Assembly: GCA_964567285.1 (NCBI GenBank)
Contig: CAZMLO010000006.1
Coordinates: forward strand, 73,303-137,302
Reading direction: 5' to 3'
DNA: 64,000 nucleotides
DNA from: an uncultured Gammaproteobacteria bacterium
Lineage (GTDB): Bacteria > Pseudomonadota > Gammaproteobacteria > JAIEPX01
Of the stretch, positions 1 through 18,803 are shown one piece after another. The translations under genes and the position numbers were made by a program. The notes under the pieces were generated by a model, which was given only the letters and a program-made list of their open reading frames with translations, was not told the origin of the DNA and ran no database searches. The stretch's first letter is position 1. Each line of letters opens with the position of its first letter.

Positions 1-1562
1 TTGAGGCTTTCGATTATAATAGTAAGGAGACGCATAAATTCATATATGATGTTGCTAAACTCATGTTAGACCATGGTAACGCACACGATGCTGTGAGATG
101 CTATAAAGAATTATTAGATATTCTTGAGTCATCACCCCATACAGAGCCTTTAAAAATCGGGATTTGTTTAAGGCATATGGGTCGAGCAATGCTAAATATT
201 AATTTAATTGAAGCAAGAGTTGTGCTTGAAAAAGCCTTACAGATTCTTCAAAAAAATAAACTCCCTACAGAGATTGGAATGTGTTTGAGCGACATCGGTT
301 TTTCTTTCTTAGACTCAGATGTTCCAATGGCTAGAGTTCAACTCGAACAAGCATTACCTGTTCTTAGATCAACATTGGGTAATCAACATCTTGAAGTGGG
401 GCTTTGTTTAAGGAGTTTAGGTTTTGTATTACTTAAGCTTAATACTCTGAATGAAGCGGAGCGTAGATTCGAAGAAGCATTGCCTATTCTCAAAAGAGAG
501 AAACACCCTCAGGCTGGGAATTGTTTACTTAATCAAGGGTCTATTATGATGACTAAAGACCCAAAAAGAGCAAAGCTACTATTTGAAGAAGCTTTGCAAA
601 TTCTCAAAACCACCTTTGGTGATAGACATATTGATGTTGCTAAGTGTTTGGCAAATCTGGGATGGACTAAACTGAATCTGAATGATTATGATAATGCCCT
701 GATACTGTTTAAGGATGCTTTACCAATCTTTGAAGAAATTCTAGATCAATATAATCCTGATATTGCCGGCTGCTTAATGGGTTTAGGAAGAGCCCTATTC
801 ATGTGTAAAAATCCCGAACAGTCAGTAAAATATTTAACAAGGGCCTTAGATATTTTTAAACGGTCTTTTCCTATGACTCATCATCATATACAAACATGTC
901 TAAGTTTTATATCAGAAGCAACACAAGCGTGTACTCTGCTCGATGATAGGAGGCTTGATCCAGCCAAAGCAATATGCGTAGCTGCCGCAGAGGGAACTGT
1001 TGAGGAATTACAAAGATTGCTAGCTATCAATAAAAAGTACGCCAATACTCCGGAGAGTGTTCCTGGTAAGAAGTTGACTGCACTACACTGCGCTGTAAAA
1101 GGTGGTCGATCAGAGCATGTCCGAGTATTGTTAGAAACAATAGGGTTTACTTCGGTAAAAGATGCTAAGGGATGCACTGCTTTAGATTATGCTATCGAGG
1201 GAAATGATATACAAATCTTACAATATTTCGCTTTTTCAATACTGAAACTGTATGAAAAAGAAACACACGATAATCAATATATGTTGCCTCTAGTCTGTGT
1301 AAAATCTAATAATGAGTCTGCTCTAAAGTTGTTAATTCATCTGAATTGGCCAATTGATGGTGTAGATCCAAAAACCGGGCAATCAGCATTACATGTAGCC
1401 GTTCTTCAGAGGAATATAAAATTCATAAAGATGTTAATAGAAGCTGGTGCAGATCCTCAGCTAGAAGATCACAAAGGCCAATCACCCATTACTTTGGCTG
1501 AAAATAGTCCCGATATATTGGAAATATTATCAATTAAGCTAAAACTGTCTTTGAATTACTAA
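1..1562 (+). CDS. TPR (kinesin-light-chain-like, ~42-aa period) + ankyrin-repeat protein, 5'-partial
   Basis: ORF 63..1562. In-frame codons 3..62 have no stop, so the N-terminus probably lies upstream of the window. About six repeats of the type A..FEEALPIL...H..VA.CL.NLG, followed by canonical ANK motifs (TALHCAVKGGRSEHVRVLLE; GQSALHVAVLQRNIKFIKMLIEAGADP). Confidence 0.7.
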   Translation, partial: EAFDYNSKETHKFIYDVAKLMLDHGNAHDAVRCYKELLDILESSPHTEPLKIGICLRHMGRAMLNINLIEARVVLEKALQILQKNKLPTEIGMCLSDIGFSFLDSDVPMARVQLEQALPVLRSTLGNQHLEVGLCLRSLGFVLLKLNTLNEAERRFEEALPILKREKHPQAGNCLLNQGSIMMTKDPKRAKLLFEEALQILKTTFGDRHIDVAKCLANLGWTKLNLNDYDNALILFKDALPIFEEILDQYNPDIAGCLMGLGRALFMCKNPEQSVKYLTRALDIFKRSFPMTHHHIQTCLSFISEATQACTLLDDRRLDPAKAICVAAAEGTVEELQRLLAINKKYANTPESVPGKKLTALHCAVKGGRSEHVRVLLETIGFTSVKDAKGCTALDYAIEGNDIQILQYFAFSILKLYEKETHDNQYMLPLVCVKSNNESALKLLIHLNWPIDGVDPKTGQSALHVAVLQRNIKFIKMLIEAGADPQLEDHKGQSPITLAENSPDILEILSIKLKLSLNY

Positions 1563-11126: not shown

Positions 11127-11399
11127 ATGTGGAAGGTTTATGAGAAGAAAACCTTAGTTAAAGAACTCCGTAATGTACCGACTCACGTTTTACAGGATTA
11201 TGAAGTGTGGAAACGAATTGTTGAGTTGGATGGCCTAGAAGGTCTTCGATTAATTAAGGGTTTTCATGACGAAGCACTCAAAGGAGAATGGAATGGTTAT
11301 CGCTCATCACGTCTTAATAAACAATGGCGAGTGATCTATATCCCTAAGCCAGATCACTTTGAAGTTTTTGTAGTAGAGGTTAACCCTCATCAATATTGA
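11127..11399 (+). CDS. RelE/ParE-superfamily toxin (HigB-like gene order, toxin first)
   Basis: 90 aa. C-terminal half is LKGEWNGYRSSRLNKQWRVIYIPKPDHFEVFVVEVNPHQY, typical of RelE-fold mRNA interferases. It sits 3 nt upstream of an HTH antitoxin gene. Confidence 0.75.
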   Translation: MWKVYEKKTLVKELRNVPTHVLQDYEVWKRIVELDGLEGLRLIKGFHDEALKGEWNGYRSSRLNKQWRVIYIPKPDHFEVFVVEVNPHQY

Positions 11400-11411
11400 G
11401 AGGTGCACAAA

Positions 11412-11678
11412 ATGAGTATTAATTATAAAGATTTTATCAATTCCCGTGTGCATACCAAAGTCACACCCGGGGAAGCCTTAAAAATAATTCGCGAGCTTCA
11501 AGAAATTTCACAAAATGAACTCGCTAAAGCTACCGGTATTTCTCAATCTAACATCTCCGCCTTGGAGCACGGAACTGCACAAATGGGCAGAGTCACCGCC
11601 ATAAAATTAGCCCAAGCATTGCATGTACATCCTGCTGTACTACTCTTTCCTGATTATGATATTCAGGAAGCTGCGTAA
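11412..11678 (+). CDS. XRE-family HTH antitoxin (HigA-like)
   Basis: HTH segment ISQNELAKATGISQSNISALEHG. ATG at 11412 has a GAGAGG SD 8 nt upstream; the ORF-track start is GTG 11403. Confidence 0.75.
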   Translation: MSINYKDFINSRVHTKVTPGEALKIIRELQEISQNELAKATGISQSNISALEHGTAQMGRVTAIKLAQALHVHPAVLLFPDYDIQEAA

Positions 11679-11766: not shown

Positions 11767-12918
11767 GTGTCGACTGACCAACTCGATATTCTGATTATTA
11801 CAGGCGAACCGTCTGGGGATATGCATGCCGCGAGATTGGTGCGGGAGTTGAGGGAGCGGGAGCCGGGGCTGCGGATTGGGGCTATGGGTGGTGAGCAGTT
11901 GGCGGCGGCTGGGGCAGAGATTATTGTTGATCATCGTGGGATGGCGGTGATGGGATTTGTAGAGGCTTTTAAGATTTGGCGTCTGATCCGTCGCGCTTTT
12001 AAGCAGTTGAAAAAGGCTATACGTGAACGGCGTCCTCGATTGGTGATATTGGTAGATTATTCTGGATTTAATTTACCGATGGCGAAATTTGCCAAATCTC
12101 AGGGCTGTCAGGTGCTTTATTATATTGCACCGCAGGTATGGGCTTGGCGCCAGGGTCGGGTGCATAAAATCAATCGTTGGGTCGATACTTTGGCGGTGAT
12201 TTTCCCTTTTGAAGTGGAATTTTATCGAGGTTTTAATCGGCTAGCGCATTTTGTTGGGCACCCTTTGGCCAAAGAACCCCTCTGCTCCTTGACCCCTGCT
12301 CAGGCAAAATTTCAGTTGGATTTAGCACCTGCTCAGCCAGTCATTGGATTGGTACCGGGAAGTCGCATGGCAGAAGTCAAAGCAATTCTGCCGACCCTCT
12401 TATCTGCAGCCGCTAAACTCTATGCAGAAAATCCAGAACTGCAATTTGTTTTACCCCGCGCTTCTACCATCGATACCCTTTGGGTGGAAGAGCAAATCGC
12501 TCAGCACAGTCTCCCGATCAAAGTCATTTCAACAGATCGATATACCACTCTCCAAGCGTGTGACATTGCTTTGGCTGCCAGTGGTACTGTCACTTTGGAA
12601 TTGGCACTCTTAGAAAAACCGATGGTTATCGTTTACAAAGGAAATCCCCTCGCCTTTTGGCTAGCAAAAAAATGGGTAAAGCTGGATCATGCTGGTCTAC
12701 CCAATATCATTGCAAAGCGAGAAATTGTCCCTGAATTACTGCAACATGATTTCACTATAGAAAAAATTTATAAGCACGTTCAGGAACTTCTCCTAAATGA
12801 GAAGGAATATCAGCGTCAAAAAAATGAGTTAATGAAGCTACAGCAAACGTTGAACTCAGTTACTCCGAAGTGCTCATTATCAGAATTGGTTATTGAGCGC
12901 TTAATGCAGCCTAAGTGA
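11767..12918 (+). CDS. lpxB: lipid-A-disaccharide synthase
   Basis: ILIITGEPSGDMHAARL, DYSGFNL, YYIAPQVWAWR and GTVTLELAL motifs. GTG start. Confidence 0.93.
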   Translation: MSTDQLDILIITGEPSGDMHAARLVRELREREPGLRIGAMGGEQLAAAGAEIIVDHRGMAVMGFVEAFKIWRLIRRAFKQLKKAIRERRPRLVILVDYSGFNLPMAKFAKSQGCQVLYYIAPQVWAWRQGRVHKINRWVDTLAVIFPFEVEFYRGFNRLAHFVGHPLAKEPLCSLTPAQAKFQLDLAPAQPVIGLVPGSRMAEVKAILPTLLSAAAKLYAENPELQFVLPRASTIDTLWVEEQIAQHSLPIKVISTDRYTTLQACDIALAASGTVTLELALLEKPMVIVYKGNPLAFWLAKKWVKLDHAGLPNIIAKREIVPELLQHDFTIEKIYKHVQELLLNEKEYQRQKNELMKLQQTLNSVTPKCSLSELVIERLMQPK

Positions 12919-12949
12919 CTATAAAAAATATCGGGAGAAATTCATCGTA

Positions 12950-15790
12950 TTATTTTGGTAAAGACGTGAGTGTTGAGTTATTTGATGATAATAATAAATT
13001 GAGTCGTTTCTGAATGCAATCGACAAGTTCTACCTCATAGGGCCTTAACAGATCAAGAGCTTCAAGACAAAGCGACTCTTTTTCGGATATATTTCCAAGC
13101 GATTCATGAGATTTGGCCATGAAGTACAAAATATTAACTCTCATAAGAGGCAAAGATTGAAGACTGGTTTTGCTTAGGCATTCACTCAAGCTAGCCAGTG
13201 CAATTTGCGGCTGGCCCCCATACAAAAGAATGAGTGAGTAGTTGAATAACAAAGATATATGCCATTTCGAAATCGCACCTTCTTTTTTCAAAATACTCTC
13301 TAAGTGTGATAATGTTGAAGGCAAAGTATCTTTATCATTCATTCTTTCAATTGAGGCACAATTAAAATCACAAGCCTGTATCATAATATGATCAGAAGGA
13401 TAAAAGAGTTTTAAATGATTACGGCTGTTATCGTAATATCTTAGTGCCTGAGCTGTATCACCCGCGTATAAATAAGCATCCCCTTGGCGGTAATAAATCC
13501 AACCTAGAAAATCACTAAAATCTTGAAAACTCTCTGTAATTAATTGTTTTGCCACAATAAAACACTGTTGTGCGGCAGAGGGGTTACCCAAATGCAGTTG
13601 CAAATCGCCTAAATTATAGAAAGGGTAGAATTTCGAGGGGTAATTCTCCCCTGCTTCAAAAAATATCTTTATCGATAAATGGAGATGTTGGAATGCGCCT
13701 TTGAGATCCCCTTTATATTGATTGATCGAAGAGAAATTATTATAAGCCATGGCTAGATCTGTGGAGGAGGGAAAACGACTTTTATATATTTCAATAGCTT
13801 TAATATAATAAGGTACTGAAGCATCACGTTCATCTTGCTTATTCAGAGTTATTGCATAACCGACATAAGTGAGAGCTAACAAATAATAACATAAATTTTC
13901 AGGTTCCAGTTTTTTTCCCAAACAATAATTAATTTCTTTTTCTGCTGACAAAAATCCTTGGGCAGCACTTTTTAGAGCATTAAGATTATAGTTGGCATAA
14001 GCTAAAAATACTCGCGCAATGATAAACTCAAAACCACCCGCAAAATATGATTCTTTTTTTTCAATTGAAGCCATTAGATACTCAACAGAAAGAGTAAACT
14101 GGCCTAGATGATAATAAATTATTCCTAGACAACTCAATACGGAAGTATAGAAAGGATCAGACTGAAGGTGCAATTTTTTGATATGCTCCAAAATACTGAG
14201 TAGATGAGGAATAAGTAGTCTCCGTACTTTGAATTCTTCGGTAGTCAAAACTCTTTTTACAGGTGTAAGCGATTGAAAACTGCTGGTTATATCATGAATT
14301 AATATTCGTGAATTTAGATTGATAATACTATGATTATTTGCATGTCGGCTTTGTACTGCTAATTGAGTGAGTTTATGAATACATATTCCCCCCTCAGAGT
14401 CCCAAACTAATCCAAACATTTTTAGTAAGGATATGGCTGAATTCAAAGATTGAATCTCTGGAATGATACATAATAAGATCTCTAAAGGAATAGTAGTATG
14501 TAAATAGGCTATTCGTTCCAATAAATAGAGGGTTTTTTGAGGATTGGGACTTGCTTCTATAGCCTCTATTGTCATTTCTATAGTGCGCCTAATCGTACAT
14601 TGATGGTCTACCGGCCCTTTCTCGTGTGTCCAAGCGGTATGAGGATTTTTATTAAAGTCATCGATATATTTCCGTACTGATATCCTGCCATTCGAATTTT
14701 TAATATAAAAACCTGCCTGACAGATAGGTAGAGCTAGCATACCTAATGTTTCGCCAAGGACAATCAATTCTGAATCAGTAGCTTGAACTGTATCCCGAAA
14801 AAGAGCACGTAGGACGGCTATAACATCCTCTTTCTCAAAAAGGGGTAAAGGTCTTACTCTAACTTGTTGCCAATCAGGATTTGTTGTTGTAATGAGTACA
14901 TGACCAACACCGACACAACGAAAGGGTAATAATTCCTTAACCTCTTCTTCTTTTAGGACATCTTCTATGACTAAGAGCCAATTCAAAGGGGTTTCTTCTA
15001 AAAATCGTCTAACATTTTTAGTAATGGCTACAATTGAACAATTGGTCCAGTGAATTTTTTTTGAGACTTCTTCCTCTCCGAGGGAGTGATTAATTTCTTT
15101 TGCCAGATCAGTAATGTCATTTTCAAAATTGCGAAAGGATAGATAAAAAATAATATGATAATTATTTTTTACAGTCTCGCAAAACTTTCGACTCAATTGT
15201 GATTTACCTGCTCCACTATGTCCAGTAATAGCACGGGTTATGACCTGATGGGGTATCATAGGAAAATCATCAATCAAAATTTTTAATTCTCTCACCCTAT
15301 TAACAAAATAGAGAGAAGGATTTTCTGCGTTACAAATGATCAGCTTATCCGTTCCCTGTGCAACATTTTTATTAACAAAAAAGGAAGCCTTTGTAGCATT
15401 TTGAATTAAGCCTCTTGAAAAATTAGGTTGAGGCAAAACAATTTGTGTTTGAATATAATTAATGGTGGATTTCGGGGTTTCGGAACTTAAAACAATATCA
15501 ACATTGGTTTTTATTGCTTCAATTTCCTTAACATCTAAATGACTCAGTCCTTCTAGAATTTTCGCTTCAAATGTTGTATTTGTTTCCGTAGCGCTAAGCT
15601 TTATAATATCCAACAAAAACCCTTTGAGAGACTCTGAAAGTTCGAGTCTATCAAGGCTATCTGTAGTAACAGAGAGATGTGATTGTTTCAGTCGAAGTAG
15701 TATTTCGCTTAGCCAAGGGGGTGGGGGTGTGTTTGTGCTCTTGAATTGAGGAGATAACTGTTCAGGATTTTGAAGAGCTAGTTTTTGCAT
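12950..15790 (-). CDS. STAND (NB-ARC-like) P-loop NTPase with C-terminal TPR array and an unassigned ~160-aa N-terminal domain
   Basis: 946 aa. FVNRVRELKIL precedes Walker A GHSGAGKS (aa 190-197, nt ~15200-15223). Walker B is WLLVIEDV and an NB-ARC-like motif HVLITTTN follows. The C-terminal ~400 aa are TPR-like (YYHLGQF..A..Y, YKGDLKGAFQHL, YAGDTAQALRYY). The start lies 3 nt after the stop of the radical-SAM gene. Confidence 0.8.
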   Translation of the reverse strand: MQKLALQNPEQLSPQFKSTNTPPPPWLSEILLRLKQSHLSVTTDSLDRLELSESLKGFLLDIIKLSATETNTTFEAKILEGLSHLDVKEIEAIKTNVDIVLSSETPKSTINYIQTQIVLPQPNFSRGLIQNATKASFFVNKNVAQGTDKLIICNAENPSLYFVNRVRELKILIDDFPMIPHQVITRAITGHSGAGKSQLSRKFCETVKNNYHIIFYLSFRNFENDITDLAKEINHSLGEEEVSKKIHWTNCSIVAITKNVRRFLEETPLNWLLVIEDVLKEEEVKELLPFRCVGVGHVLITTTNPDWQQVRVRPLPLFEKEDVIAVLRALFRDTVQATDSELIVLGETLGMLALPICQAGFYIKNSNGRISVRKYIDDFNKNPHTAWTHEKGPVDHQCTIRRTIEMTIEAIEASPNPQKTLYLLERIAYLHTTIPLEILLCIIPEIQSLNSAISLLKMFGLVWDSEGGICIHKLTQLAVQSRHANNHSIINLNSRILIHDITSSFQSLTPVKRVLTTEEFKVRRLLIPHLLSILEHIKKLHLQSDPFYTSVLSCLGIIYYHLGQFTLSVEYLMASIEKKESYFAGGFEFIIARVFLAYANYNLNALKSAAQGFLSAEKEINYCLGKKLEPENLCYYLLALTYVGYAITLNKQDERDASVPYYIKAIEIYKSRFPSSTDLAMAYNNFSSINQYKGDLKGAFQHLHLSIKIFFEAGENYPSKFYPFYNLGDLQLHLGNPSAAQQCFIVAKQLITESFQDFSDFLGWIYYRQGDAYLYAGDTAQALRYYDNSRNHLKLFYPSDHIMIQACDFNCASIERMNDKDTLPSTLSHLESILKKEGAISKWHISLLFNYSLILLYGGQPQIALASLSECLSKTSLQSLPLMRVNILYFMAKSHESLGNISEKESLCLEALDLLRPYEVELVDCIQKRLNLLLSSNNSTLTSLPK

Positions 15791-15793
15791 AAT

Positions 15794-16951
15794 TTACAGG
15801 GGTTTTGTCATCTTATTTAAAACTACGTCCGTTAGTACTTGTACTGTAAGTTTGCATTCAACTGTTTCAGTTGTATCAAATCTCCCGTGCTCATAAAATT
15901 TATTAGAAGGTGATCCCCCGCCGCATAGATCAAAATAATCACAGCTTTCTGCACAGTTCTTTATACCTTGGGTAATGGAGGCTAGTTGTTGCTGAAAATC
16001 AAGTGATTTTTCTAGCTCTTCAAATCGCTTAATATTGAGGACGTTTCCAATTACAAATTTCTGGGGTTCGTTAGGAGTGCCACCGGCCATTTCTGGTGAA
16101 AATGTAGTTACATTACCATCTTTAGATATTGTTATAACACAGAATGCCACAGTTACATCCTTGGGAAATACACGATCCGGTGAGTGCTTTTTAATTAAAA
16201 GAAGTTGTCCTACGCCATTAATTTCTCTTATTTCCATAGCTCTACCATCAGCATCCCACAGATCATAAAGCCTTTCGAAAAACTCCTTATATCTTTCGAT
16301 TAGTCTCTGTCCAGATGTACCTGATAATGCAGCTCCGTAACTTGAGCTCTTATTATCGCCGTCTTGTTCGTCAATATTAAAACTGATTGATTCAAAGCCT
16401 TCAGTTTTGTAAAATTGAAAAATCTCGTCGGGATAATCAAGGCTGTAATCGGATAGGACCGCTATCGATCTTAAAGGGATATGATGCTTCTTCAGGTAGC
16501 TAACGCCTTGCATTGCTTTGTCGAAAGACCCTTTATTTCCCCACGTCTTTCTAAATCGATCATGAATATGGGCTGGTCCATCAATACTAACAGTTGCTTG
16601 GTAATTATATTCCCTGAAAAAGTCACACCATTCATCATTAATTAAAGTGGCATTGGTTTGGATACCCATATGAAATTTTCTGTTATAGATATTACACTTC
16701 TCGACTAATCTGTTAGCATTTTTATAAAAGTCTATCCCCGCCACCAAAGGTTCACCCGCATGCCAAACAAAGTTTATTATATCTTCATCATCGGTTGGTT
16801 GTGTTACTTCGCTCTCAAAAACGCAACGAAGAGCTCCAATGAGTACTTCGTCAGACATCAGTTGTTTATTTTTTCTGTCTGGAACATAGCAATATGAACA
16901 ATTTAAGTTACAAAAATTGGTAGGTTGCAATACAACAAGAGATGTTATCAT
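15794..16951 (-). CDS. radical SAM / SPASM-domain peptide-maturase-like enzyme (anSME superfamily)
   Basis: 385 aa. LQPTNFCNLNCSYCYV gives Cx3Cx2C at aa 14-21, followed by WHAGEPL. The C-terminal Cys cluster CAESCDYFDLCGGGSP...VEC is typical of SPASM/twitch auxiliary Fe-S sites. Confidence 0.85.
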   Translation of the reverse strand: MITSLVVLQPTNFCNLNCSYCYVPDRKNKQLMSDEVLIGALRCVFESEVTQPTDDEDIINFVWHAGEPLVAGIDFYKNANRLVEKCNIYNRKFHMGIQTNATLINDEWCDFFREYNYQATVSIDGPAHIHDRFRKTWGNKGSFDKAMQGVSYLKKHHIPLRSIAVLSDYSLDYPDEIFQFYKTEGFESISFNIDEQDGDNKSSSYGAALSGTSGQRLIERYKEFFERLYDLWDADGRAMEIREINGVGQLLLIKKHSPDRVFPKDVTVAFCVITISKDGNVTTFSPEMAGGTPNEPQKFVIGNVLNIKRFEELEKSLDFQQQLASITQGIKNCAESCDYFDLCGGGSPSNKFYEHGRFDTTETVECKLTVQVLTDVVLNKMTKPL

Positions 16952-16966
16952 AGCAAATGATCTTCA

Positions 16967-17215
16967 TTACCACTTAAGTTTGAAAGCATTGAAAGCACAG
17001 TATGCTTGATAACTAGTGTTGACTCTAAGAATCGGAACTCTATCTTCATCTTCAGGTTTGATTTCGTTCAAGTCATCTAAAATACGATTTTTTGTCGGTC
17101 GTGGAGTAATAAATAAGGGGTAATACCCTTTTTCAACGAATTGTCTAATCCGCAAATTTGTTTTTCCATCCGGTTGCTCAATTGGGTCTTCTTTATCATT
17201 ATTTTCTGTACTCAT
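16967..17215 (-). CDS. 82-aa candidate RiPP precursor peptide (acidic leader, aromatic period-3 C-terminal core)
   Basis: GGAGA SD 6 nt upstream of the ATG. The stop lies 15 nt upstream of the radical-SAM start. The C-terminus is ...NTS-YQA-YCA-FNA-FKL-KW. Confidence 0.55.
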   Translation of the reverse strand: MSTENNDKEDPIEQPDGKTNLRIRQFVEKGYYPLFITPRPTKNRILDDLNEIKPEDEDRVPILRVNTSYQAYCAFNAFKLKW

Positions 17216-17467
17216 CGGGTATCTCCATGAATAATATCTTGAATATGTTATATTATAATTTTAAATTTGTATATAGTGTTCATTGCATCTAAACTAAATA
17301 ATCAATAGTCTAACCATTATCGTAGCACACCAAAATATTATTAAATATTCAGCAGCTACTGCCCATTGATAGGTAATTTATTACACGACTTTCAGAATAC
17401 AGCCACTTGATAATTTTATGAAAAGTGATACTGTTCTACTTCCATTAACTAAAAGGAGAATTATTCA

Positions 17468-17902
17468 ATGAACTCAATCAAAAAAGCGATCCTGGTTGGT
17501 AGCAGTGTTTTAGCAATCGTTTTTGCTGCAAATTCTGCGCTAGCAGTGGGGCATAATGGTCACAAAGGTCATGCAAAAATCTGGAAAGACCAAGGACCAA
17601 ACATCGTAGTAACAGCTGATCCTAGCGATTTTGCTTACTCTATGAAATTAAAGTATGTACTCAAGAACAATGCTACTGGCAAACCGGTTAAAATTGACGT
17701 TGATCAAGCTGGCGTTGCTAACGCGCTTGCTCAATTGCAAACAGTCGGCACAGGCAACGTTCTTGTGATCAAAGAACTGTCTTTCAAAGATGCTAATGGC
17801 AAGAAATTAGATAATTGCAACATGATCAAAAACTCTGCTTTTGTCAGTGGTGCTTCTTCTGTTTCTATCGCTATCAGCGCAAACGGCTGTGTTGTACAGT
17901 AA
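17468..17902 (+). CDS. small secreted protein of unknown function (Sec signal peptide)
   Basis: AAAGGAGA SD. Signal peptide is MNSIKKAILVGSSVLAIVFAANSALA/VG. The mature N-terminus is His-rich (HNGHKGH). Two Cys lie near the C-terminus. A strong terminator follows. Confidence 0.7.
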   Translation: MNSIKKAILVGSSVLAIVFAANSALAVGHNGHKGHAKIWKDQGPNIVVTADPSDFAYSMKLKYVLKNNATGKPVKIDVDQAGVANALAQLQTVGTGNVLVIKELSFKDANGKKLDNCNMIKNSAFVSGASSVSIAISANGCVVQ

Positions 17903-17913
17903 TTTTGCTCTAT

Positions 17914-17943
17914 AAAAAAGGGGGCTCTTAGCCCCCTTTTTTT
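17914..17943. terminator. bidirectional rho-independent terminator
   Basis: aaaaaa-GGGGGC-tctta-GCCCCC-ttttttt, located between convergent genes (17902 + / 17955 -). Confidence 0.8.
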
Positions 17944-17954
17944 ATGTCGGAAAA

Positions 17955-18803
17955 TTAAGCATCAAATTCCGGTGCTTCAAACTCACCACTGCGCAAAATG
18001 CCACGTGTCGAATTATTGATGGAATCAATGAAATGTTGCACATCCGGATATTCACTCACTAAACTTTCAAGCTCTTTCATGGCTTGTGTTACATTTAATC
18101 CCTTGCGGAACAGGATGTTGTATGCTCGGCGTAAACCGGTAATCGCTTCGGTAGAGAATCCGCGTCGTTTTAATCCGACAATATTTAAACCACATAATTT
18201 GGCAGTATTACCAGTGACAATCACAAACGGTGGAATATCCTGTGAAATCATGGAAGCGGTGATTAAACTGTAAGCACCGATCGTGCAATTTTGATGAATC
18301 CCCACAAAGCCACCAATGCGCGCATAATCCCCTACTTTAACATGGCCACCAAAGGCTGCATTATTCACTAAAGTGACAAAATTTCCGATTTGGCAATCAT
18401 GTGCAATGTGCACATAGGCCATTACAAAATTATTATTACCGAGTCGGGTTGTGCCAATACCATTGGTGGTACCTCGGTGAATAGTACAAAATTCTCGGAT
18501 GGTATTATTATCCCCAATGTCGAGATAGGTTTTTTGATCTTTATAATTGGTATCTTGAGGCACTTCGCCAATCGAACTGAATTGATAAATGCGATTATTT
18601 TTTCCGATGCGAGTGTGCCCATTAATCACCACGTGAGATGCAATTTCGGTGCCCTCACCGATTTCTACATCAGGGCCGATCAATGTCCAAGGGCCTATTT
18701 TAACGCCATTAGCAATTTTTGCGCCAGGATGAACAATCGCACGCTCATCTATATTACTTGAGCTTTGCGACGGATGTTGTGTTTTTATTTTTTCTTCAAT
18801 CAT
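17955..18803 (-). CDS. lpxA: acyl-ACP:UDP-GlcNAc O-acyltransferase
   Basis: Hexapeptide-repeat left-handed beta-helix plus C-terminal helical domain ([13 protein letters not shown]). Lies downstream of fabZ. Has an N-terminal extension of ~20 aa relative to E. coli LpxA. Confidence 0.92.

Follow-up and report, generated by a model that had tools for sequence, protein, structure and literature searches.

The N-terminus of a 946-amino-acid (aa) STAND NTPase, encoded on a 64,000-nt stretch of DNA from an uncultured gammaproteobacterium (contig CAZMLO010000006.1; the whole stretch is called the window below), carries a real, conserved and very rare domain of about 100 residues without known relatives. 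This core (aa ~24-122, hereafter the N-domain) stands ahead of an NB-ARC NTPase module and a TPR region. We propose, tentatively and with a confidence a little short of even, that it is an undescribed, lineage-restricted, non-catalytic module with an output or adaptor role, placed at the N-terminus of a small repertoire of STAND proteins resembling nucleotide-binding leucine-rich repeat receptors (NLRs). The domain family is new; the architectural slot that it fills on STAND NTPases is known.

A conserved core in the N-terminal region

An exhaustive phmmer search of 1.84 billion cluster representatives, run with a single sequence and not with an iterated profile, returned 11 homologues of the core at E values from 1e-22 to 6e-4, a conservation far above chance. 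Query aa ~20-140 align to residues 4-125 of all 11 homologues, that is, to the extreme N-terminus every time. The core is marked by the motifs WLxxIVxRLKQSxL, DxLxxLxLSxSLKxFLxEI and LGVKEIEEI and by a C-terminal, strand-like (S/T)xQYVxNQFxF. Only three of its residues (W26, D44 and I62) are invariant, and L27, Q36, S37, L49, L51, S52, K56, E91 and Q116 are nearly so. It is acidic in 11 of the 12 members (pI 4.7-6.5), and its ~100 aa hold no conserved Cys or His.

Alignments resolve the region aa 1-189 into three parts, a leader (aa 1-23), the core and a linker (aa 123-160). The beginning of the protein quoted in the original prediction, which was made from the sequence alone and left this region unassigned, is the exact translation of the gene. 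The leader is unique to the window protein, the homologues having only ~8 residues ahead of the conserved Trp; because no other in-frame ATG, GTG or TTG precedes W26 of the STAND protein, the N-terminal extension is real and not an artefact of open reading frame (ORF) calling. The distance from the end of the N-domain to the P-loop varies from 48 to 83 aa across the family. Poor conservation or disorder in homologues, named in advance as what would speak against a functional domain, is thus found for aa 1-23 and 123-160 but not for the core.

No Pfam-A, NCBIfam or PADLOC match was obtained with aa 1-165 or aa 1-189 at E<=1, nor any Pfam-A match for the N-domain in any of the 12 members at E<=10. 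The PHROGs search of the N-terminal region was empty, and a profile search of PDB sequences with the N-domain alone gave nothing credible. The early observation that aa 1-~165 show no recognisable motif therefore holds against all five collections.

Structure prediction and comparison, the check proposed for this region, yielded four rough helices but no assignable fold. AlphaFold2 with the 12-sequence alignment gave a mean predicted local distance difference test score (pLDDT) of 49.7 for aa 1-165 and 51.5 for the trimmed core, and the models were used for a rough helix count only. The two agree only on four helices (~aa 25-36, 53-67, 71-83 and 87-94), at low confidence; two C-terminal segments of alternating hydrophobic residues (VDIVLSS and STINYIQTQIVL) are given no element in the models and look beta-like. 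A Foldseek search of the trimmed-core model against the PDB was meaningless (best E 4.6, TM score <=0.32), and hhalign against bDLD3 (a bacterial Death-like domain; alignment from the eLife 2021 supplement) returned a probability of 0.2%.

Distribution and architectures of the family

The N-domain family is very rare and is confined to a few uncultured, low-GC, ankyrin-rich gammaproteobacteria. A word-indexed homology search with aa 1-189 returned nothing, and with the full protein only the protein itself and one TPR match; the exact STAND protein is absent from the contig index. Pattern scans did not find the family in 185,579 GTDB species representatives (full protein and a 4-sequence domain alignment) or in JGI metagenome contigs (two alignments), and tblastn of the N-domain against plasmid and phage collections gave no match. 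No further N-domain copy was found in the window or in the 19 loci retrieved.

Four of the homologues (P0123-P0126) come from the same four sequencing runs as the window operon, which recurs there with zero nucleotide differences. Their loci differ from that of the window, with type II secretion genes, lptD/surA, folD or genes without a Pfam match as neighbours. The simplest reading, to which these shared runs point, is that one genome holds several N-domain paralogues, with at least four further copies. The members P0129, P0130, P0131 and P0133 are from other samples or assemblies. Among the family loci beyond the window, six were read, and all six lack a radical S-adenosylmethionine (SAM) gene and a precursor-like neighbour.

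The domain is fused to NTPases of two clades, NB-ARC and NACHT, and is followed by four kinds of C-terminal region; it also occurs free-standing, in complete short proteins (Table 1). In P0124 (536 aa) the N-domain and a NACHT module are separated by 61 nt from a 933-aa WD40 gene, beside type II secretion genes, and the pair looks like a split NLR-like sensor. P0125 and P0131, from different assemblies, each adjoin a beta-lactamase-family gene and may be positional orthologues despite low identity (only 33% in the N-domain and 45% in the NTPase module).

The NTPase core and its relation to the N-domain

The NTPase module opens with an FVNR..EL motif at aa 161-169 (FxxR/FTGR..EL in the family). 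The Walker A motif GHSGAGKS at aa 190-197, the Walker B motif LLVIEDV and a Pfam NB-ARC match (PF00931, aa 187-302) that lies just above its cutoff (24.5 against 23.5 bits) place it in the NB-ARC (AP-ATPase) clade of STAND NTPases. Pfam TPR_12, TPR_2, TPR_10 and TPR_1 match between aa 646 and 790 of the presumed sensor region. The C-terminal tails of the window protein, P0126 and P0131 are Ser/Thr-rich and hydrophobic near the end (SSNNSTLTSLPK, ESTSLSSTCGIQ and SESSLSIML), by sequence reminiscent of type IVB secretion signals.

A profile of the N-domain plus NTPase matched AfsR (3e-11), Roq1, NRC3, ADR2, Sr35, PH0952 and Apaf-1 in the PDB, through the NTPase part only. In AfsR, Roq1, NRC, Sr35 and Apaf-1, the solved proteins nearest to the NTPase core, the output domain (a SARP, TIR, coiled-coil (CC), CC and CARD domain, respectively) is N-terminal to the aligned core. 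In all NB-ARC members the NCBIfam profile NF040586 (FxsC) aligns from its positions 1-8 onward, and the aligned stretch opens just behind the N-domain and linker; the N-domain is thus an add-on ahead of a complete FxsC-like NB-ARC-TPR core. The scores are 91.5 bits for the window protein (aa 162-440) and 102-288 bits for the paralogues (P0123 highest), all below the 300-bit cutoff.

The N-domain is better conserved than the NTPase behind it. Identity to the window protein is 35-53% in the N-domain against 17-25% in the NTPase, the mean identities are 43% and 31%, respectively, and the N-domain has the higher value in 23 of 28 pairs.

Operon context and the neighbouring RiPP genes

The STAND gene is the last of a three-gene minus-strand block that also contains an 82-aa ORF and a 385-aa radical SAM/SPASM gene. 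The STAND ATG lies 3 nt after the radical SAM stop codon, and 15 nt separate the precursor ORF from the radical SAM gene downstream of it. The GC content is 0.35-0.38 in all three genes, whereas the window as a whole has 0.425 and the lpx genes have 0.41-0.47. Because of this low GC and because no convincing internal promoter or terminator was found between the three genes, they look like one operon on a compositionally distinct insert.

The block is preceded by the gene string rpsB-tsf-...-uppS-cdsA-dxr-...-bamA-skp-lpxD-fabZ-lpxA and followed by an inverted lpxB, a HigB/HigA-like pair, an oxidoreductase gene, rnhB and dnaE. The string that it interrupts is among the most conserved in Gammaproteobacteria. 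The insert splits lpxA from lpxB and holds, besides the block, a divergent gene, oriented away from the precursor gene, for a 144-aa protein that matches no family and has a clear signal peptide (MNSIKKAILVGSSVLAIVFAANSALA). This protein may be an exported partner or immunity factor of the neighbouring genes, which belong to a pathway for ribosomally synthesised peptides with post-translational modifications (RiPPs).

The radical SAM enzyme scores 364.9 bits with TIGR04261 (GrrM/OscB), against a cutoff of 310, and fails TIGR04269 (FxsB; 103.6 against 370). With this score and an adjacent small precursor rich in aromatic-X-X triplets, it is predicted to be a three-residue cyclophane synthase of the GrrM/OscB type. 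The 82-aa candidate precursor has a leader motif KGYYP, the core ...YQAYCAFNAFKLKW and the C-terminus AFNAFKLKW. Among the radical SAM relatives with readable context, the two nearest (51% and 48% identity, loci L015 and L016) likewise have a small ORF with an aromatic-rich core directly upstream, and the leader motif KG(F/Y)(Y/L)P is common to all three precursors. Downstream of these two genes lie a SET-like protein and an uncharacterised 276-aa protein, respectively, and no STAND NTPase.

The C-terminus of the window precursor consists of back-to-back aromatic-X-X triplets (YQA-YCA-FNA-FKL-KW) with Ala or Leu at i+2, where the relatives have Asn, Asp or Lys (FRD, FAN, FNN and FSK at L015; FPN and FSN at L016). 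This suggests, from the letters, a different cross-link acceptor in the window peptide. The L015 gene directly after the closest radical SAM relative was judged by eye to be SET-domain-like, that is, a eukaryote-like methyltransferase. L016 contains a VirK gene and, upstream of the precursor, a gene for a 2,331-aa AMP-binding/PP-binding/thioesterase/TPR protein.

Proposed role of the N-domain

The extreme N-terminal position, the association with two NTPase clades and four kinds of C-terminal region, the existence of free-standing copies, and the small size and the composition of the domain all support the proposal that the N-domain is a shared output or adaptor module. Multiple terminal copies per genome of a small non-catalytic domain are the pattern described for effector-associated domains (EADs) and Death-like domains (PMC8195603). 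The greater conservation of the N-domain than of the NTPase fits constraint from a shared partner or from self-association. A non-enzymatic signalling handle common to these proteins is more likely than a toxin or a module that recognises peptides, and we infer that induced proximity is how it signals. The C-terminal repeats (TPR here; TPR plus ankyrin, WD40 or a region without Pfam match in the paralogues) would bind a ligand, upon which the NB-ARC or NACHT core would exchange nucleotide and oligomerise. Oligomerisation would cluster the flexible, linker-tethered N-domains, and these would then signal by protein-protein contact, either with each other and with the free-standing N-domain proteins or with one shared downstream partner. 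The window copy would act alongside the co-transcribed triceptide genes or downstream of them, and would not recognise their leader.

Several points weigh against this proposal. The AlphaFold2 models, at pLDDT ~50 and with nothing returned by Foldseek, allow no fold to be assigned, and the profile-profile comparison with bDLD3 was negative. None of the 11 homologues, found by single-sequence search, carries an effector domain (protease, TIR or nuclease), and no candidate partner protein was found in the window and the loci searched, so one leg of the adaptor logic is missing. The presence of several copies per genome is deduced from shared sequencing runs and not from a closed genome. The higher conservation of the N-domain could also result from recent domain shuffling or gene conversion. 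Finally, the adaptor model leaves the tight link to the radical SAM operon unexplained.

Alternative explanations

The operon link is the starting point of an alternative raised in the original prediction, in which the N-domain is a leader-recognition or docking module, a surrogate RiPP recognition element (RRE) that presents the 82-aa precursor to the GrrM/OscB enzyme or couples its maturation to the NTPase. In its favour, the radical SAM enzyme has no N-terminal extension (CxxxCxxC occupies aa 14-21, and TIGR04261 matches from aa 8 on). The STAND gene runs in the same direction as the radical SAM gene, only 3 nt behind it and of the same low GC; NB-ARC-TPR and TPR proteins are named parts of other cyclophane RiPP systems (NF040586 and NF041717), and the size and mixed alpha/beta prediction of the N-domain are in the range of RREs (PMC11002830). 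Against it, the six other family loci have neither radical SAM gene nor precursor, the nearest radical SAM relatives keep precursor and leader motif with no STAND neighbour, and the characterised cyclophane synthases OscB, XncB and MscB modify their precursors on simple co-expression in Escherichia coli, with enzyme and peptide alone (PMC11002830). Together these three observations argue that the N-domain is not a general or required leader-recognition element, although a minor, local part in this single operon is conceivable. The 12 members also give no PqqD/RRE match in Pfam at E<=10, and the predicted order of elements, helix first and strands last, is unlike that of an RRE, albeit in a low-confidence prediction. 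A dedicated leader-recognition role is thus not supported and we regard it as unlikely; the peptide and the radical SAM enzyme look like a self-sufficient pair. Somewhat more improbable, in our view, is the idea that the N-domain is a docking point that physically couples an NLR-like sensor to the triceptide pathway. Once the TPRs sensed a ligand, the oligomerised STAND would use the N-domain to recruit the radical SAM enzyme or the precursor, or to release it; the cyclophane peptide would be made on demand or would feed back as the sensor ligand, and the N-domains of the paralogues would link other sensors to a common hub. If true, a host-associated bacterium would have a STAND-gated RiPP system and, with it, a repertoire of NLR-like proteins served by an adaptor of its own.

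Other alternatives concern what the domain itself would do, and none of them is favoured. The original prediction had located the activity in this region in case the system is a defence or signalling module, and a discrete conserved module in the output-domain position of NB-ARC and NACHT proteins agrees with that; an enzymatic output is unlikely. A small toxic effector (nuclease, TIR or NADase, or protease) is the usual N-terminal domain of Avs-type defence STANDs (PMC13581612), and the invariant D44 and the nearly invariant E91 and K56 could be read in its favour; it is nevertheless improbable, because the core is small and acidic, has no conserved Cys or His and has only W26, D44 and I62 invariant. 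Moreover, Ser-His or acidic-pair motifs are absent, there is no PADLOC, Pfam, NCBIfam or PDB match, and the free-standing copies occur without an obvious inhibitor. A membrane-targeting helical bundle like plant CC, fungal HeLo or bacterial Bell domains, whose N-terminal helix is released on oligomerisation and damages the membrane, would agree with the amphipathic first helix, which is conserved and in 11 of the 12 members begins ~8 residues after the start Met, with the roughly four helices predicted in ~75 aa and with the N-terminal position on NB-ARC proteins whose solved relatives include CC-NLRs. We doubt this executioner role in view of the acidic domain, the Arg, Lys and Gln on the first helix, the 17 extra residues ahead of that helix in the window copy, the free-standing copies and the lack of sequence or profile similarity to any such family. 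Another alternative is a host-directed module: the STAND proteins would be eukaryote-like effectors that an intracellular bacterium translocates, and the N-domain would have a factor or compartment of the host as its target. The ankyrin repeats of family members, the SET-like, VirK and large ankyrin genes at the related loci L015, L016 and L018, the TPR-ankyrin protein also encoded in the window, the Ser/Thr-rich tails and the confinement of the family to a few uncultured genomes are in line with it, but no secretion system or host association is demonstrated for the organism, the window copy shares its operon with genes of a bacterial RiPP pathway, and the explanation supplies a place of action and not an activity; we hold it unlikely. 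Least credible is an amyloid or prion-like motif. Here the C-terminal strand, (S/T)xQYVxNQFxF and in some members with VVIGSQ, would act as the template for a partner motif in the manner of bacterial amyloid signalling sequences (BASS). A Q/N-rich segment in which hydrophobic residues alternate does precede the linker of this NLR-like protein, and NLRs that bear BASS typically have 10-150 aa of N-terminal extension (bioRxiv 10.1101/2020.01.06.895854). Yet a search of the window and the 19 loci with a sub-hidden Markov model (sub-HMM) of the strand picked up only the family itself at E<0.5, there is no G-hydrophobic-Q-hydrophobic-G signature, the strand is embedded in a larger conserved domain, and each locus has different upstream genes. 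DNA binding of the AfsR/SARP type was rejected on account of the acidic N-domain.

Features of the window and of the homologous loci

Two further features of the window were recorded. Genes for a 90-aa RelE/HigB-like toxin and a 91-aa HTH_3 antitoxin form a pair between the oxidoreductase gene and lpxB. FxsC-like TPRs at aa 83-290 are combined with C-terminal ankyrin repeats in a 499-aa protein that has neither an NTPase nor an N-domain.

Table 1. Positions and architectures of the features described (window coordinates unless a locus is named).
Feature	Position	Strand	Basis or remark
946-aa STAND NTPase ORF	12950..15790	-	ATG start
aa 1-189 of the STAND protein	15224..15790	-	Ends at last residue before P-loop
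Leader, aa 1-23 (MQKLALQNPEQLSPQFKSTNTPP...), unique to window protein	15722..15790	-	Alignment, start codon context
Conserved N-domain core, aa ~24-122	15425..15721	-	phmmer matches, alignments, composition
Variable Pro-rich linker, aa 123-160, N-domain to NTPase	15311..15424	-	Unconserved in alignment
NB-ARC STAND NTPase module, aa 161-~480	14351..15310	-	Pfam, NCBIfam and PDB profile matches
Walker A, aa 190-197	15200..15223	-	
TPR region, aa ~550-946 plus stop codon, presumed sensor	12950..14143	-	Pfam
Ser/Thr-rich C-terminal tail	12953..12990	-	
Radical SAM/SPASM maturase, GrrM/OscB family	15794..16951	-	TIGR04261 and Radical_SAM Pfam matches; upstream in same operon
82-aa candidate triceptide precursor	16967..17215	-	Translation; small ORF and KG(F/Y)(Y/L)P kept at two related loci
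Insert between lpxA and lpxB	11767..18803		
144-aa signal-peptide protein	17468..17902	+	
RelE/HigB-like toxin and HTH_3 antitoxin	11127..11678	+	
499-aa TPR-ankyrin protein	63..1562	+	
P0123: N-domain + NB-ARC-TPR			Pfam scan
P0125: N-domain + NB-ARC-TPR	L008 2178..6949		Pfam scan; range noted for P0125 next to beta-lactamase-family gene
P0130: N-domain + NB-ARC-TPR			Pfam scan
P0126, P0128: N-domain + NB-ARC-TPR-ankyrin			Pfam scan
P0131: N-domain + NB-ARC + 1,300-aa C-terminal region without Pfam match	L018 6343..13292		Range noted for P0131 next to beta-lactamase-family gene
P0124: N-domain + NACHT, then separate 933-aa WD40 gene	L011 4008..8481 (both genes)		
P0129: complete short protein, N-domain without NTPase			
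P0133: complete short protein, N-domain without NTPase			Ankyrin gene next
SET-domain-like protein after closest radical SAM relative	L015 6394..7074		By eye

Significance and comparison with known systems

Bacterial NLR-like STANDs are interpreted from their N-terminal domains, the parts that specify a system's output. A domain in the output position without known relative, common to four kinds of C-terminal region and two NTPase clades, speaks to the design of an immune-receptor repertoire, and defining it extends the catalogue of STAND adaptor and effector modules by one family. The locus is also one of few cases in which a STAND gene is operon-linked to a cyclophane RiPP pathway of the GrrM/OscB type; for those who mine this cluster for its natural product, the 946-aa gene is dispensable as the supposed supplier of leader recognition.

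The known system with the same kind of core is FxsC (NF040586), an NB-ARC-TPR protein whose gene is likewise next to a cyclophane-forming radical SAM/SPASM enzyme. The FxsC profile has no counterpart of the N-domain, however, and no member reaches its equivalog score (>=300 bits). In addition, the neighbouring enzyme in the window is GrrM/OscB and not FxsB, the peptide ends in ...FKLKW and not in FxSxx, and the paralogues with the best FxsC scores are not beside any radical SAM gene.

As for RREs (PqqD-like, with a winged-helix fold of three strands and three helices), the N-domain is of similar size and is encoded in a RiPP operon whose enzyme has none, but it shows no Pfam PqqD signature, and co-occurrence with RiPP genes is limited to the window copy. 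BASS systems repeat the same motif on the C-terminus of an effector encoded by an adjacent gene, whereas the sub-HMM found only the family itself in the window and the 19 loci. Resemblance to the anti-phage STANDs in PADLOC (Avs, bNACHT and others) amounts to a weak match of the P-loop to mad8 (E 0.047), with none on the N-domain.

EADs and bDLDs (PMC7159879, PMC8195603) differ from the N-domain in that no similarity is detected (no Pfam match; of the EAD and bDLD alignments only bDLD3 was compared, at 0.2%), no effector-fused N-domain copy was found, and the N-domain hosts are not known to be multicellular. They resemble it in being small, apparently non-catalytic, terminal, STAND-fused and multi-copy, free-standing short forms included, the sharing of one genome by the N-domain copies being deduced from the sequencing runs. 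From the SARP domain of AfsR, the TIR domain of Roq1, the CC domains of NRC and Sr35 and the CARD of Apaf-1 the N-domain differs in having no detectable sequence similarity to any of them, but it occupies the same position as all of these ahead of a homologous NTPase core.

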